Shown: positions 56,532 through 61,055 of the stretch, piece after piece | Layout of the letters: the number at the start of each line of letters is the position of its first letter | Position numbering within the stretch: the stretch's first letter is position 1 | DNA from: Capsulimonadaceae bacterium | Lineage (GTDB): Bacteria > Armatimonadota > Armatimonadia > Armatimonadales > Capsulimonadaceae | Direction of reading: 5' to 3' | Assembly (NCBI GenBank): GCA_965215505.1 | Contig: OZ244065.1 | Location: 5,888,001-5,952,000 of the forward strand | Length of the DNA stretch: 64,000 nucleotides | The notes under the pieces: generated by a model | The model's database searches: none | The model's input: the letters and a program-made list of their open reading frames with translations, nothing else | What the model was told of the DNA's origin: nothing | Position numbers and translations under genes: made by a program

Positions 56532-56616
56532 CGGTTGGAGGCAGATACGGTTTGCTGCTCTGGTCTGTAAAACCAGTTCCCGTTGTGGAGTGTGGGTTCG
56601 AATCCCACCCAACCGA
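56532..56616 (+). tRNA. Atypical tRNA-Tyr(GUA) or tRNA-like RNA
   Basis: Acceptor CGGTTGG/CCAACCG, D-stem GCAG/CTGC, anticodon arm CTGGT-CTGTAAA-ACCAG, long variable arm, T-arm GTGGG-TTCGAAT-CCCAC, A73; no encoded CCA. Confidence 0.85.
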
Positions 56617-56649
56617 CTTGACCGACCATTCCGAAGGGAGGCGACGCGA

Positions 56650-57756
56650 ATGAGCGAACTGGAAGTACAGCGATTTTTACGCGGCGGCGGGACGCTCGCA
56701 GATCTGACGGCCACCTACGGCATCAAGGCGAAAGCCGATGTCGATCTCGGCGTCGTCATGCTGAACTACAACCAGATCGCCTCGCCGATGGCCGAAATGA
56801 TCTGCCAGGAGTGCCGCGCCCTGCTGCTCGAAATGGGCACCTGGGACGTGGTTTCGCGGAGCTTCTTCAAGTTCTTCAATCTGGGGGAGCCGAACGCCCA
56901 CGAGGTTGATTGGAAGACGGCGCGGGTGCAGGAAAAGCTGGACGGCAGCCTGGTCTGCCTCTACTTCCACCGAGGGCAGTGGCGGGTCGCGACGAAGGGA
57001 ACGCCGGACGCCTCCGGGCCGGTGAACAGCCACCCGATCACCTTCGCGGACCTGGTCAAGCAGACGCTGGCCGAGATGGGAAGCTCGTTCGAGGGCCTGA
57101 CGGCACATCTCGACCCGGCGGTCTTCTACTCCTTCGAGCTGACCGCGCCTGAGAACCGCATCATCGTCCCCTATGAAGACCGCCGCCTGACCTGGCTGGC
57201 GGCGTGGGATGCGCGGACCTTGGAAGAGCTGGACATTGAGGCGCTGCCCGACCTGCCCACCCCGCGCGTCCGGGAGTACCCGCTGCGGACTCTGGACGAG
57301 GTGATGACGGCGGTGGGGGCCATCGCGCCGTTCGCCGCCGAGGGCTTCATCGTGCGGGACGCGGCCCACCGGCGCGTCAAGATCAAGAGCGCGTCCTACC
57401 TGATGGTGGACCGCATCCTGAGTGCCCTCAGCACGCCCCGCCGCAAGGTGGAAGCGGTGCTGTCCGCGCAGTTCGACGACATGGTGCCGCAGCTCCCGCC
57501 CCAAGTGCGGGACGAGATGCTGTCGCTCCAGGCACATCTGGTGGCGTTCCGCCGGGAGGTGGCGGAGACGTTCGAGGCGCTTGCCGGGATCGAGGACCGG
57601 CGCGGGTTCGCGGCGGAGGCCTTGCGCCACCCGTTCTCGCCGATGCTGTTCTGGCTGCGGGACGGCAACGACATGGATGAGTGCTTCAGGCGGCTCCACC
57701 CGGACCGCCTGGTGGAATGGCTGGCGGTCGCGCCCGCCGGGGCGGAGGAGGAATAG
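56650..57756 (+). CDS. T4 Rnl1-like ATP-dependent RNA ligase
   Basis: ECRALLL, SFFKFFNLGE, motif I EKLDGSL, FELT, EGFIVRD, RVKIKS; RBS GGAGG before ATG 56650. Confidence 0.85.
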   Translation: MSELEVQRFLRGGGTLADLTATYGIKAKADVDLGVVMLNYNQIASPMAEMICQECRALLLEMGTWDVVSRSFFKFFNLGEPNAHEVDWKTARVQEKLDGSLVCLYFHRGQWRVATKGTPDASGPVNSHPITFADLVKQTLAEMGSSFEGLTAHLDPAVFYSFELTAPENRIIVPYEDRRLTWLAAWDARTLEELDIEALPDLPTPRVREYPLRTLDEVMTAVGAIAPFAAEGFIVRDAAHRRVKIKSASYLMVDRILSALSTPRRKVEAVLSAQFDDMVPQLPPQVRDEMLSLQAHLVAFRREVAETFEALAGIEDRRGFAAEALRHPFSPMLFWLRDGNDMDECFRRLHPDRLVEWLAVAPAGAEEE

Positions 57757-57759
57757 GAA

Positions 57760-58770
57760 ATGTCTACGCTTATCGTGGAGGTCTGCAAAATCGAAAAAGT
57801 GCTGGCGCATGACAACGCGGACGCGCTGGATCTGGCTCAAATCAAGGGCTGGCAGTGCGTCATCCCGAAGGGGAAGTACGCGCCGGGCGACCTGGTGACC
57901 TACATCCCCATTGATGCGGTCATCCCGGCCGAGCATTCGGACCGCTGGGGCATCACCAAGTACCTGTCCAACGGGCGGGTCCGGTGCGCGCGCCTGCGCG
58001 GCGAGCCGAGCTTCGGCGTCATCGTGGACCGCGACAATAAAGAATGGCCGGAGGGTAGGGACATCCAGGACTTCTACGGCATCACCAAGTACGTCCCGCC
58101 GGTCAAGATCAGCGCGGGCGACGCCGCCCCGTCCCACCCGCTGTTCGTCGAGTACACGGACGTCGAGAACCTGCGGAACTTCCCCGCCGTCTTCACGGAA
58201 GGCGAGGAGGTGTCGGTGTCGGAGAAGATTCATGGGACATCATGCCGGTTGGGGCTGGTCGAGGGCGAGTGGATGGCCGGCTCCATGTCGGTGCGCCGAC
58301 GCCGGCCCGAGGAGCTGTCGGGGAGCATCTACTGGCAGCCGATGGCCCTGCCGGATGTCGAGGCCCTGCTGAGTCACCTGGGCGCCTCGCACCGGCAGGT
58401 GATCCTGTACGGCGAGGTCTTCGGCAGCAAGGTCCAGAGCCTGGCCTATGGTCAGACCGGGGCGACCGGCTTCCGCGCCTTCGACCTACTGGCCGACGGC
58501 AAGTACCTGGACGCAGACGACTTCGCGGCCTTGTGCGCGCGGTTCGAGGTACTCGCCGTCCCCGTCCTGTACCGGGGGCCGTACAGCCTGGAGACAGTCA
58601 AGGCGCTGTCCGAGGGCGCGACGACCTTGGGCGCGGACCACATCCGCGAGGGCGTCGTCGTCCGCCCGGTGCGGGAGCGCAATGACCCGAAGGTGGGCCG
58701 GGTCTGCCTGAAATACATCGGCGACCCGTACCTGTTCGCCAAGAACGTCACGGACAGCCACGACGTTTGA
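57760..58770 (+). CDS. DRB0094/Rnl5-family ATP-dependent RNA ligase
   Basis: N-terminal OB module (H.NAD.L.LA.I.GWQCV...GDLV.YIP.D), motif I EKIHGT, YGEVFG, FRAFDL, REGVVV, LKYI. Confidence 0.88.
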   Translation: MSTLIVEVCKIEKVLAHDNADALDLAQIKGWQCVIPKGKYAPGDLVTYIPIDAVIPAEHSDRWGITKYLSNGRVRCARLRGEPSFGVIVDRDNKEWPEGRDIQDFYGITKYVPPVKISAGDAAPSHPLFVEYTDVENLRNFPAVFTEGEEVSVSEKIHGTSCRLGLVEGEWMAGSMSVRRRRPEELSGSIYWQPMALPDVEALLSHLGASHRQVILYGEVFGSKVQSLAYGQTGATGFRAFDLLADGKYLDADDFAALCARFEVLAVPVLYRGPYSLETVKALSEGATTLGADHIREGVVVRPVRERNDPKVGRVCLKYIGDPYLFAKNVTDSHDV

Positions 58771-58791
58771 CATTTCGAGAAAGGGAAAAAC

Positions 58792-60227
58792 ATGGAAAAG
58801 GAAAACATCAAGATCTTCGGAGACCACGAGGAGTCCACGTTGGCCCAGATCACGCGCTCGGCCTCCCCCGAGTCGGTCCGAGGCGCCGTCCTGTGCGCGG
58901 ACGGCCACAAGGGCTACGCCGTGCCCATCGGGGGCGTGATCGCCTACGAGGACAAGATCAGCCCGTCCGGAATAGGGTTCGATATCGCCTGCGGCAACAA
59001 AGCCGTGCGCCTGGACGTTCCCGCCTCGCAGGTGCGGGGCAAGATCAAGAAGATCATGGATGACGTCTGGAGCCACCTGGAATTTGGCATCGGTCGGACG
59101 AACGACACGCATGTGGACCACGAGCTGTTCGACGACGAGGCATGGAAGCTGTCGCCGATGAAGTCGCTAAAGCAGATGGCCCGCAACCAGCTTGGGACAA
59201 TCGGCAGCGGTGTCAGCCGCCTCGCATTGTAAGATGCGATGAGAAACCCGTCCAAATCGGGAAACGCCTGTGAGGGTAATTCCGAGGGAAGTGCGCTGGC
59301 GCGAGCCAACACCCCGTAGAGAGCAGAGGGACTTGGGCAGCCTGGGAACAGGCTGAAGGTGTGCTCCGAACTGCATGGAAAACGAACATGCAGAGCCAGG
59401 CGGAAACGACCTGGATGGTTTTGCTTTTTCGCGGCAGGAACCGCATAAAAAGCAAAACAGATAACAGACTGAACCACTATGTGGACATCTTCGCCGATGA
59501 GCAGGACCGGACCTGGATCGGCGCGCACTTCGGATCGCGCGGGCTGGGGCACAAGACGGCGACCTTCTTCCTGGAGGCGGGCGGGGCGAAGGACGGCATG
59601 GACGTGGACCCTCTGGTCCTCGACGTGCGCTCGTCGCTCGGCGGCGACTACCTCGCCTGCATGGCCCTGGCCGGGCGCTACGCCTACGCGGGGCGCGACT
59701 GGGTCTGCGCCGAGGTGGCGCGGCTGCTGGGGGCGAACATCCTGGAGGAAGTACACAACCACCACAACTTCGCCTGGAAGGAGACGCACGGCGGGCGGGA
59801 CCTGTGGGTGGTCCGCAAGGGGGCGACGCCGGCCTTCCCCGGCCAGAAGGGATTCGTTGGCGGCTCGATGGGGGACCAGTCGGTCATCCTGGAGGGCCTG
59901 GCTTCGGACGAGGCGACGGACGCGCTGCATTCGACGGTGCATGGTGCGGGCCGCGTGATGAGCCGGACGCAGGCGCGCGGCAAGGTCAACCGCAAGACGG
60001 GCCAGGTGATCTCGCCGGGCGTGGTCTCGCGCGCGATGATGCAGGAGTGGCTGCGCGAGAAGAACGTCGAGCTGCGCGGCGCGGGCACGGACGAGTCGCC
60101 GCATTGTTACAAACGGCTTCCGGACGTGCTGGCGCACCACGCCGGGTCCATCCGCGTCCTGCACACGCTGACGCCGCTCGGCGTGGCGATGGCAGGCGAG
60201 GACGTGGCAGACCCGTTTCGGGACTAG
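58792..60227 (+). CDS. rtcB: RtcB RNA ligase, spliced: exon 1 58792-59211, exon 2 59472-60227 (391 aa)
   Basis: Exon 1 has DGHKGY.VPIGG, DIACG, QLGTIGSG; exon 2 has NHY, HFGSRG, HNHHN, RKGATPA, GSMG, HGAGR, DESP..YK. Joining them restores GTIGSGNHY in frame. Confidence 0.93.
59212..59471 (+). ncRNA. Group I self-splicing intron (260 nt, no internal ORF) in rtcB
   Basis: 5' exon ends in U forming a U-G wobble in P1 (GCGGU-GUCA-GCCGC); terminal G 59471; P3 CCCGUCC/GGAC(UU)GGG; P4 UCGGGA/UUCCGA; P7 G(A)GAGCA 59319-25 / UGCUCC 59362-67; P8 CAGCCUG-GGAA-CAGGCUG; GNRA loops on P2, P5, P6; three 3' hairpins. Confidence 0.9.
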
Positions 60228-60231
60228 GCTC

Positions 60232-60261
60232 ACACCCGGCCCTTCCGGGCCGGGTGTTTTT
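60232..60261 (+). terminator. Intrinsic terminator after rtcB
   Basis: ACACCCGGCCC-TTCC-GGGCCGGGTGT followed by TTTT. Confidence 0.75.
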
Positions 60262-60263
60262 CT

Positions 60264-60336
60264 GCTTCCGTCGCTTAACTGGACAAAGCGCGCCCCTTAT
60301 AAGAGCGTGATCCGGGTTCGAGTCCCGGCGGGAGTA
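60264..60336 (+). tRNA. tRNA-Ile(UAU), rare anticodon
   Basis: Acceptor GCTTCCG/CGGGAGT, D-stem GCTT/AAGC with GG in loop, anticodon arm CGCCC-CTTATAA-GAGCG (one C-A mismatch), T-arm CCGGG-TTCGAGT-CCCGG, A73; no encoded CCA. Confidence 0.85.
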
Positions 60337-60338
60337 GC

Positions 60339-61055
60339 CTATGAGCCGTGGGTCTTGGCCGGATGAGCGGGCTTGCGCTTGGCCGTGACGGAGGCGGCGG
60401 GCTTGTGGGGCTTTGTATGGGACACGGGGCTGACGAGGAACGTGACCGGCGTGAGGGCGGTGACGCTGCCGTCCGCCATCAGGGCGCTGGCCCCGAGCGT
60501 GTGGTCGCCGGGGCGGAAGAGGGAGGTGTCTATCGTCACTTTGCCCGACCCGTCCACCGTCAGGGGCGTCGGGGCACCGTCGAGGCTGAGGGTGAACTTC
60601 TGCGCCGTGAGCGCCCCCGTCGGCGTAATCGTGACGCTGGTCTTGCCGACGATGGTTTCCACCTTCATCGTGAAGGGCACGGCGTCGATGAGCTTGACGT
60701 TGTAGCGAGTCATCCGGGTGACCGCCCCGCCCCCCCGGCTCCAGTAGACCGCGATCTGCTCGGTCGGGTCGTGTTCGATGGCCGTGTTCCACACCAGCTT
60801 CCACGAGTCCAGGAAGTCGCCCTTGGTGAACTCGCCGTAGTCGTTGCGGAGGGCGAACGTGGTCATCATCATCTGCTGGCTGATCGTCCCCTGGAACACG
60901 ACGAGGGTGCCCCGCACGACCGTGAGCGGGATGGGGGTTGGGGACGGCTTGACCAGCACGGTCACGGTCGGTGCCTGGGCGGACGCCGCGCCACCGAAGC
61001 CGTAGACCGCAAAAATTACGAGGGCGGGGATGAGAGCCTGAGTGATAGCCTTCAT
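60339..61055 (-). CDS. Hypothetical secreted protein
   Basis: AGAGGAG RBS, signal peptide ending ASA, beta-rich C-terminus. Confidence 0.65.
   Translation of the reverse strand: MKAITQALIPALVIFAVYGFGGAASAQAPTVTVLVKPSPTPIPLTVVRGTLVVFQGTISQQMMMTTFALRNDYGEFTKGDFLDSWKLVWNTAIEHDPTEQIAVYWSRGGGAVTRMTRYNVKLIDAVPFTMKVETIVGKTSVTITPTGALTAQKFTLSLDGAPTPLTVDGSGKVTIDTSLFRPGDHTLGASALMADGSVTALTPVTFLVSPVSHTKPHKPAASVTAKRKPAHPAKTHGS

Follow-up and report, generated by a model that had tools for sequence, protein, structure and literature searches.

A Predicted Group I Intron Family in the Catalytic Gly-Asn-His Motif of rtcB Genes from Bacteria and Phages

The rtcB gene of a Capsulimonadaceae bacterium is interrupted within the catalytic Gly-Asn-His motif of its product. 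The interruption occupies exactly positions 59212–59471 of a 64,000-nt stretch of contig OZ244065.1 (assembly GCA_965215505.1, positions 5,888,001 to 5,952,000), which is referred to as the window. From its sequence, its fold and its homologs, the insert is very probably a group I intron with precisely these borders. It may be considered an open reading frame (ORF)-less member of a mobile family, a copy that appears either to have lost its endonuclease or never to have had one.

Interruption and Splice Sites of rtcB

Both the sequence and the ORF list place the rtcB frame from 58792 through the codons GGC AGC GGT that end at 59211. Past this point, an in-frame TAA at 59230–59232 closes the reading frame as an ORF of 58792–59232. 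The gene resumes at 59472 with the codons AAC CAC TAT and its frame ends at 60227. The 260-nt insert is not divisible by three, and it separates the third base of a Gly codon (GGU) from the Asn codon of the G-N-H motif. An earlier note, made from the sequence of the window alone, had read the break after GTIGSG, the restart at NHY, the insert length and the premature stop in the same way. The Pfam RtcB family is matched by both halves of the gene, at profile positions 8–94 and 174–424 of 426. In a search of the PDB, the end of exon 1 aligned with LGSLGSG201 of Pyrococcus RtcB (1uc2); the two residues that follow directly in that protein, N202 and H203, are taken here to be catalytic.

When exon 2 was used as the query, matches were found in 40 of 61 related genomes. 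Twenty loci were compared, and in 17 of them residue 140 of exon 1 adjoins residue 1 of exon 2 with zero gap. The other loci are that of the window (260 nt), that of genome G022, where a 254-nt homologous insert occupies the same point, and that of genome G026, which has a group II intron close by. If the insert were excised at its predicted borders, the host frame would be restored and GSG joined to NHY as in the 17 uninterrupted relatives. The insert has a minimum free energy of -111.5 kcal/mol (z = -4.26), which was equalled by none of 200 shuffled sequences. By BLAST and by covariance model, it is present as a single copy in the 6.18-Mb genome; a repeat or miniature inverted-repeat transposable element was thus ruled out.

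The borders are also marked by features that recur throughout the family. A U (T in the DNA) is found at position -1 in 88 of 88 intron-bearing alleles in a search that permitted T or C, and the matching Gly codon in the 17 intron-less relatives is GGC (9), GGG (7) or GGA (1) and never GGT. The host genome is 67% G+C, and the rare GGT codon is retained in all three GC-rich carriers, which fits either a requirement for the U at -1 or co-conversion during homing. In each of 43 distinct contexts, P1 consists of 5–6 contiguous pairs from the U.G pair onward, and the internal guide covaries with the Gly/Ser codons of the exon (GGAGGU/GCCUCC, GGUGGU/GCCACC, GGGGGU/GCCCC(U/C) and GCGGU/GCCGC). At the other border, 82 of 85 loci have a G, not imposed by the search, directly ahead of their first AAYCAY, and two of the three exceptions are matches inside an intron ORF. 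An in-frame stop lies ahead of P3 in all 61 distinct 5' contexts. Such stops are consistent with keeping ribosomes off the core and go no further than this, as they are often expected by chance in AT-rich members.

Architecture and Covariation

The secondary structure in Table 1 was derived by hand and then tested on alignments. It has the helix order P3-P4-P5-P6-P7-P3'-P8-P7' with a P3/P7 pseudoknot, and this order is supported by covariation. The peripheral elements are all plain hairpins, mostly capped by GNRA loops. The earlier note had described a full group I core with a U.G splice site, P3, P4, P6 to P8 and a terminal G, and this description agrees with approximately 100 homologous introns. 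The variant P7 that it had pointed out (GAGCA/UGCUC) is located at 59321–59325 and 59362–59366, and P7 does covary across the family.

In an unguided MAFFT alignment of 18 ORF-less members, RNAalifold recovered P1, P2, P4, P5, P7, P8, P9, P9.1 and P9.2, with compensatory changes in 36 of 56 pairs. For the same 18 members, the full model including the P3 pseudoknot had 89.8% of its cells paired versus 36–41% for slid controls; 37 of 68 pairs were changed on both sides and none of 500 shuffles was equally good. A larger set of 73 distinct cores, spanning P3 to P9.1, had 98.7% of its cells paired versus 34–41% for slid controls and compensatory changes in 33 of 48 pairs, with 0 of 500 shuffles equally good. 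P3 was 98.6–100% paired, and its outer pair occurs as CG, GC, AU and UA. This larger set excludes cores longer than 200 nt (L075, L101, L104 and L118), loci whose P5 loop (L5) contains an ORF (L086, L102 and L115), and cut loci (L040 and L070). While the shuffle test is inflated by the relatedness of the sequences, the slid controls and the counts of pair types are unaffected by these sampling caveats.

A scan in which P7 was left free returned the P7 variants GAGCG/CGCUC (L066 and L127) and GAAUG/CAUUC (L129 and L133). In intron numbering, nucleotides 108 and 156 form a G-C, A-U or U-A pair across the bulged nucleotide 109. From these variants and pair types, it follows that the P7 helix is real and contains a bulge. 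Four of the six P7 pairs covary, and the pairs G110-C155 and A111-U154 are invariant in all 73 cores. A bulge followed by an invariant G-C pair is presumably the layout of a guanosine-binding site, as in A263 and G264-C311 of Tetrahymena. The bulged A109 and the G110-C155 pair are thus predicted to form the guanosine-binding site of the rtcB intron. Some similarity to a known intron was also detected with a covariance model of the 170-position core (R1), which aligned the P8-J8/7-P7'-P9 block to the annotated group IA intron of T4 td (E = 0.012) and aligned weakly to the T4 nrdB intron (E = 1.3).

An ORF in frame with exon 2 begins inside the insert at a GTG (59361). It might be argued that there is no intron and that RtcB is made as two assembling polypeptides, of 146 and 288 aa, with the insert as a structured spacer between them. 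The break would then split the GxGNH metal and nucleotide motif. Furthermore, conservation of the insert tracks RNA pairing and not codons, its length varies from 235 to 1065 nt within the family, and every distinct context has the stop ahead of P3 that was noted above. The probability of this arrangement is negligible.

Several points weigh against a group I intron. The Rfam model RF00028 gave no match at its gathering score on the window, no match at E <= 10 on 59100–59600, and no match on the loci of 13 relatives. This was the covariance-model check that the earlier note had proposed, and its outcome is negative; however, it carries little weight because the same model gives the annotated T4 nrdB intron 35.7 bits where its gathering score is 50, and at E <= 1 it does not return the T4 td intron. 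The P1 loop is unusually short (4 nt) in the sublineage formed by the window, G022 and L090, and the GAUU/AAUC P10 pairing of cyanobacterial and phage members is missing from all three. The short P1 and the lack of P10 are regarded as conserved features of this sublineage and not as fresh damage because they are shared with the diverged L090, in which the helices are kept. J6/7 and J7/3 are longer than what are taken to be the textbook lengths. The search patterns and regular expressions fixed parts of P3', P4 and P6 and, for most sequences, of P7, and invariance at these positions is partly a matter of ascertainment. Lastly, the RNA data consist of metatranscriptome contigs from relatives (85–95% alike), with only small shares in the RNA runs. 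In run X7, one RNA contig joins 59211 to 59472, just as an intron-less allele would; the intron is included in RNA contigs of X1 and X6.

The insert could instead be a splicing-dead relic in an rtcB pseudogene, with a second RtcB paralog doing the work. The missing endonuclease ORF, the reduced P1 loop and lost P10, and RNA contigs that do not demonstrate spliced RNA would all be in keeping with a relic, as would a second RtcB-like gene at G000:C1:248109-248750 (39% identical). Such decay is difficult to reconcile with the exons, both of which are intact and 94–96% identical in protein to uninterrupted orthologs, with synonymous changes prevailing over nonsynonymous ones against G011 (32 to 8 codons in one exon and 53 to 10 in the other). 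It also leaves unaccounted for the rare GGT that supplies the U at -1 in three GC-rich carriers, the short-P1 form common to the window, G022 and L090 despite a core identity of 78.8% to the latter, and the compensatory changes that maintain the helices. A relic is therefore highly improbable, and a splicing-competent, ORF-less group I intron that is inherited with the gene remains the favored interpretation. Its identity as such is very likely and its efficient splicing in vivo is somewhat less so.

Table 1. Predicted elements of the interrupted rtcB gene and neighboring features (window coordinates).
Feature	Position	Strand	Details
tRNA-Tyr	56532–56617		Cluster start
Rnl1-type RNA ligase	about 56650–57756		PF09511
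Second RNA ligase, PHA02142 OB domain	57760–58770		PF09414
rtcB exon 1	58792–59211	+	140 codons; 3' end GTIGSG; U at -1 from final codon GGT
Very probable group I intron, ORF-less	59212–59471	+	260 nt; sequence, fold, comparative alignment, covariance model
P1	59207–59220	+	Exon GCGGU (59207–59211) with internal guide GCCGC (59216–59220); wobble U59211.G59216; 4-nt loop GUCA
P2 hairpin	59222–59239	+	GUAA loop; holds in-frame TAA (59230); U:A to C:G compensatory change in G022
P3 5' strand CCCGUCC	59247–59253	+	Pairs with 59329–59337, 2-nt bulge; pseudoknot with P7
J3/4 AAA, P4 (59257–59261 / 59281–59285), J4/5 AAAC, P5 with GUGA loop, J5/4 AAU	59254–59285	+	Alignments
P6/P6a (GGG..GUG..UGGC-GCGA-GCCA..CAC..CCC), GNRA loop	59286–59315	+	Loop GCGA to GAAA in G022
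P7 5' strand	59319–59325	+	G108, bulged A109, G110, A111, G112, C113, A114 (intron numbering); pairs with 59362–59367
P3 3' strand (GGAC UU GGG)	59329–59337	+	Alignments
P8 hairpin, GGAA loop	59338–59355	+	7 of 7 pairs covary
J8/7 (AAGGUG) and P7 3' strand (UGCUCC)	59356–59367	+	Corresponding block of T4 td intron aligned
P9 hairpin	59371–59393	+	Alignments, T4 td alignment
P9.1 hairpin, invariant GAAA loop	59395–59415	+	Alignments
P9.2 long hairpin	59418–59458	+	Site of LAGLIDADG gene in relatives
3' tail ending in UAACAGACUG, omega-G at 59471	59459–59471	+	Last 10 nt equal the VTD-stop codons of the L074 LAGLIDADG ORF
rtcB exon 2	59472–60227	+	251 codons and stop; opens NHY
Terminator-like hairpin	between rtcB and tRNA-Ile		
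tRNA-Ile, anticodon TAT	60263–60339		After hairpin

Distribution, Mobility and Proposed Splicing

Public collections were scanned with a first pattern (J6/7-P7-P3' ... J8/7-P7'), which identified 34 viral contigs, mostly of 77–400 kb, and 57 species genomes. The genomes include many Nostocales and other cyanobacteria, Pyrinomonadaceae, Blastocatellaceae, Chthonomonadales and other Armatimonadota, as well as Shimazuella, Paenibacillus, Thermincola, a Firmicutes metagenome-assembled genome (MAG) and another MAG that bears the label Gracilibacteria. A second pattern (P3-P4...P4'-P6, with P7 free) identified 41 viral stretches, 10 of them new. Viral carriers amount to approximately 45 contigs, mostly jumbo phages. 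With the exon proteins of the window as probes, 55 of the 57 genome loci were found to have the exon 1 end, the exon 2 start or both beside the element (33 both, 17 exon 2 only and 5 exon 1 only). The start of exon 2 was found at 30 of 45 viral loci. Eight viral loci were without RtcB; most of them are truncated by the edge of the locus, and in one of the eight, L046, the element is in another gene. The shared insertion site for which the earlier note had suggested a survey is therefore found in G022 and in many bacterial and viral carriers.

While the RtcB exon 2 of the carriers is mostly 23–32% identical in protein to that of the window, the intron core is 61–88% identical in nucleotides (median 74%). 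By this sequence comparison, the introns are a single family at a single site of highly divergent rtcB genes, and the same core in genes of such low protein identity shows movement between phage and bacterial genes. The family spans at least four bacterial phyla in addition to phages. The statement in the earlier note that group I introns are uncommon in bacterial protein genes fits the accessible portion of PMC3984707, yet the rtcB family itself is common.

Within the class to which the window belongs, the intron has a patchy distribution, with carriers in 2 of 71 genomes. The closest orthologs, in G011 and G012 (95–96% identity in exon 2 protein), are without the intron and the ortholog in G022 (94%) contains it. 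The nucleotide identity between the window and G022 is 85.2% and 89.8% for the exons, 91.9% for the intron and 97.8% for the core, and the differences in the core preserve GNRA loops (GCGA to GAAA and GGAA to GAGA) and one P2 pair. The third GC-rich carrier, L090, also has a 4-nt P1 loop like the GC-rich intron of the window; its core is 78.8% identical and all helices are kept through compensatory changes. Intron-bearing and intron-less forms of rtcB are both present among contigs from ice and plant metagenomes and metatranscriptomes (85–97% alike). The two forms occur together in one run, X2 (probably DNA), so co-occurring relatives are polymorphic for the intron. Weak BLAST matches in G033 and G041 were rejected as chance matches to unrelated sequence.

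A blastn search of cultured phages with the intron of the window and three family members identified no intron-bearing rtcB, only an exon match and a 46-nt match. The exon match is in the cultured jumbo Tunturiibacter phage Tunturi_5 (L137, PP885688.1 243762-244943), which encodes an uninterrupted short RtcB of 393 aa. Its DNA is 84.6% identical to the start of exon 2 over 39 nt, so that the short type of RtcB in the window is shared with soil jumbo phages. The 46-nt match is in the uncultured crAss-like phage cr116_1 (MT774389.1 / NC_055882.1 35113-35158), where an unannotated segment is 84.8% identical to P2-P3-P4 of a family member and may represent another related intron. The family member in L046 (5771-6007 and 6062-7396) interrupts another phage gene, whose 297-aa ORF is without a Pfam match, between EGVITG and KLTF. 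A free-standing GIY-YIG endonuclease gene lies directly downstream on the opposite strand, an arrangement that resembles 'collaborative homing'.

Family introns range in length from 235 to 1065 nt. All four of the 3'-side ORFs that were tested (L032, L067, L069 and L100) match Pfam LAGLIDADG_3, and the L5 ORF of L102 (L102:2199-2687) matches HNH. In the cyanobacterial loci L102, L086 and L115, an HNH endonuclease ORF located in L5 either takes the place of the P9.2 LAGLIDADG ORF or accompanies what remains of it. The presence of LAGLIDADG in P9.2 and HNH in L5 suggests that endonucleases invaded this ribozyme family twice independently. In L071 (2065-2871) and L074 (7041-7820, minus strand), the TGA stop of the LAGLIDADG gene straddles the 3' splice site, with TG in the intron and A in the exon, and the conserved 3' tail of the ribozyme doubles as the final codons of the endonuclease. 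As the earlier note had recognized, the intron of the window has no homing-endonuclease ORF; its sole ORF, of 80 aa on the minus strand (59213–59455), has no Pfam match. The nearest endonuclease-bearing relative is L074, from a Chthonomonadaceae MAG, with a core identity of 87.7% and an RtcB exon 2 that is only 32% identical. The final ten bases of the L074 intron, UAACAGACUG, are identical to those of the window and there encode the end of the protein (VTD-stop). This shared tail is consistent with the loss of an ORF from the P9.2 loop of the window's copy, a direction that is inferred. LAGLIDADG and HNH genes in relatives and a patchy presence among near-identical rtcB orthologs constitute the signature of selfish homing, and the family is best interpreted as a selfish element aimed at a conserved motif.

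A conventional splicing pathway can be proposed. The transcript would fold into P1 through P9.2, and an exogenous guanosine, held in P7 beside the bulged A109, would attack after U59211, which is in a U.G wobble with the guide. The terminal G59471 would next occupy the same site in P7 and the exons would be joined, GGCAGCGGU to AACCACUAU, restoring an RtcB of 391 codons. Ribosomes would be stopped short of the catalytic core by the in-frame TAA at 59230 in P2. As an element, the intron would home to DNA encoding GG(G/S)G-NH, with insertion before the NH, in very different rtcB genes, and the copy in the window would now be inherited with its gene.

The earlier note had also proposed a conditional switch, in which splicing responds to GTP or guanosine, Mg2+ or stress and gates the production of RtcB. 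Guanosine and Mg2+ are required by every group I intron, rtcB sits in an RNA-repair cluster, and between the window and G022 the core is better conserved than the exons; a regulated bacterial precedent is also available in the c-di-GMP (cyclic di-GMP)-controlled group I ribozyme of C. difficile, described in the portion of PMC3984707 that could be consulted. Conservation of the core, however, is already needed for a ribozyme merely to splice. Rfam scans of the window and of 59100–59600 identified no ligand aptamer, riboswitch or other Rfam family attached to the intron, and its periphery is limited to the plain, mostly GNRA-capped hairpins. The intron also lies within coding sequence and not in a leader, it is dispensable given that G011 and G012 are without it in the same gene context, and its relatives contain homing endonucleases. 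With no aptamer, endonuclease-bearing relatives and a patchy presence, the switch is unsupported and very unlikely. A broader idea is that the intron was kept in several phyla since splicing is rate-limiting and dependent on conditions (translation, Mg2+ or guanosine nucleotides), such that RtcB is made only when RNA repair is needed. Alternatively, the intron might protect its allele from cleavage by a phage-borne LAGLIDADG enzyme specific for the GGGNH-coding site, and would then play a part in a conflict between phage and host over RNA repair. Either version is quite doubtful, and a selfish element that is inherited with rtcB remains the preferred explanation.

Genomic Context and Comparison with Known Systems

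The interrupted gene is the last of a compact RNA-repair cluster at 56532–60339 of the window. A tRNA follows rtcB directly in G022 as well, and a tRNA-Ile with a TAT anticodon is uncommon in bacteria. The second, distant RtcB-like gene lies elsewhere in the same genome; its 39% identity is to exon 2, and the match has a single TAG within its open frame. Comparable second copies of RtcB are found in many relatives.

Other mobile elements were observed in rtcB. In L014 (1498-3711), L015, L016 and L024, the rtcB frame is 850–875 aa in length and exon 1 matches only from residue 67. The L014 protein reads AEGIVVHN followed by CGNKAVRLD, with LAGLIDADG-like motifs and a match to Pfam Intein_splicing of 31 bits where the cut-off is 35.8. 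In these four proteins, an intein appears to interrupt RtcB at its metal-binding Cys, between VVHN and CGNK. In G026 (L136:1236-3657, minus strand), rtcB is broken after GSGNHYVDL by a group II intron encoding a protein with reverse transcriptase, maturase and HNH regions; exon 2 resumes at FADEKDR, and the insertion point lies 18 nt farther downstream than that of the group I intron. The rtcB genes of a single bacterial family are therefore host to a group I intron, a group II intron at a distance of 18 nt, or an intein. From these three kinds of element, it appears that the catalytic motifs of RtcB strongly attract mobile elements.

There are practical consequences for annotation. Gene callers would report two RtcB fragments in the window, and the same split is expected in dozens of genomes of cyanobacteria, Acidobacteriota, Armatimonadota and Firmicutes as well as in jumbo phages; the standard RNA library is silent on the element. 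As a compact ribozyme of 235–260 nt with approximately 100 natural variants and rich covariation, the family may also be useful for studies of ribozyme structure and homing.

Group I introns in protein genes of bacterial chromosomes are rarely reported in the accessible parts of PMC4853749 and PMC3984707. According to the latter, bacterial group I introns are found more often in rRNA and tRNA genes than in genes for proteins, and homing enzymes target the codons of critical residues. No published group I intron in rtcB was found in the literature within reach, which did not extend to subscription journals and supplements, and the word rtcB does not occur in the available text of PMC3984707. 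The intron family and its host gene are apparently undescribed, while the kind of element and its mechanism are those of the textbook. What is new is a GC-rich, ORF-less form in a bacterial chromosome along with a wide bacterial distribution.

The td, nrdB and nrdD introns of T4 (IA2) and similar phage and prophage introns also interrupt a conserved catalytic motif of a protein gene. They share with the rtcB intron the U.G 5' splice site, the terminal G, the P3/P7 pseudoknot and an early in-frame stop. Endonuclease genes are likewise located in peripheral loops, and ORF-less and ORF-bearing forms coexist. The T4 record annotates the td and nrdB introns as 'group 1A intron'. In contrast, the rtcB intron has neither P7.1 nor P7.2, with P3' (to 59337) and P8 (from 59338) contiguous, and its P7 is GAGCA/UGCUC and not of the GACUA/UAGUC type. 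Since P7.1 and P7.2 are missing and only the P8-P7'-P9 block is td-like, the rtcB intron is not of subgroup IA2. The host gene differs as well, and the rtcB family extends over at least four bacterial phyla plus phages.

The introns of Thiomargarita dsrA, Geobacillus flagellin and Bacillus recA and nrdE are further examples of group I introns in core protein genes of free-living bacteria. While these were found by Rfam or BLAST, the rtcB family is missed by Rfam; it also has another host gene and site and far more carriers. The c-di-GMP ribozyme of C. difficile is, like the rtcB intron, a bacterial group I ribozyme, and it is the sole regulatory example described in the consulted part of PMC3984707. 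It has a tandem riboswitch aptamer and controls a ribosome-binding site from a 5' leader, neither of which is a feature of the rtcB intron. The inteins of RtcB, such as that of Pyrococcus RtcB, are likewise selfish, associated with LAGLIDADG and targeted to an invariant catalytic motif of this protein; they differ in splicing at the level of the protein and in occupying a different site, the metal-binding Cys.

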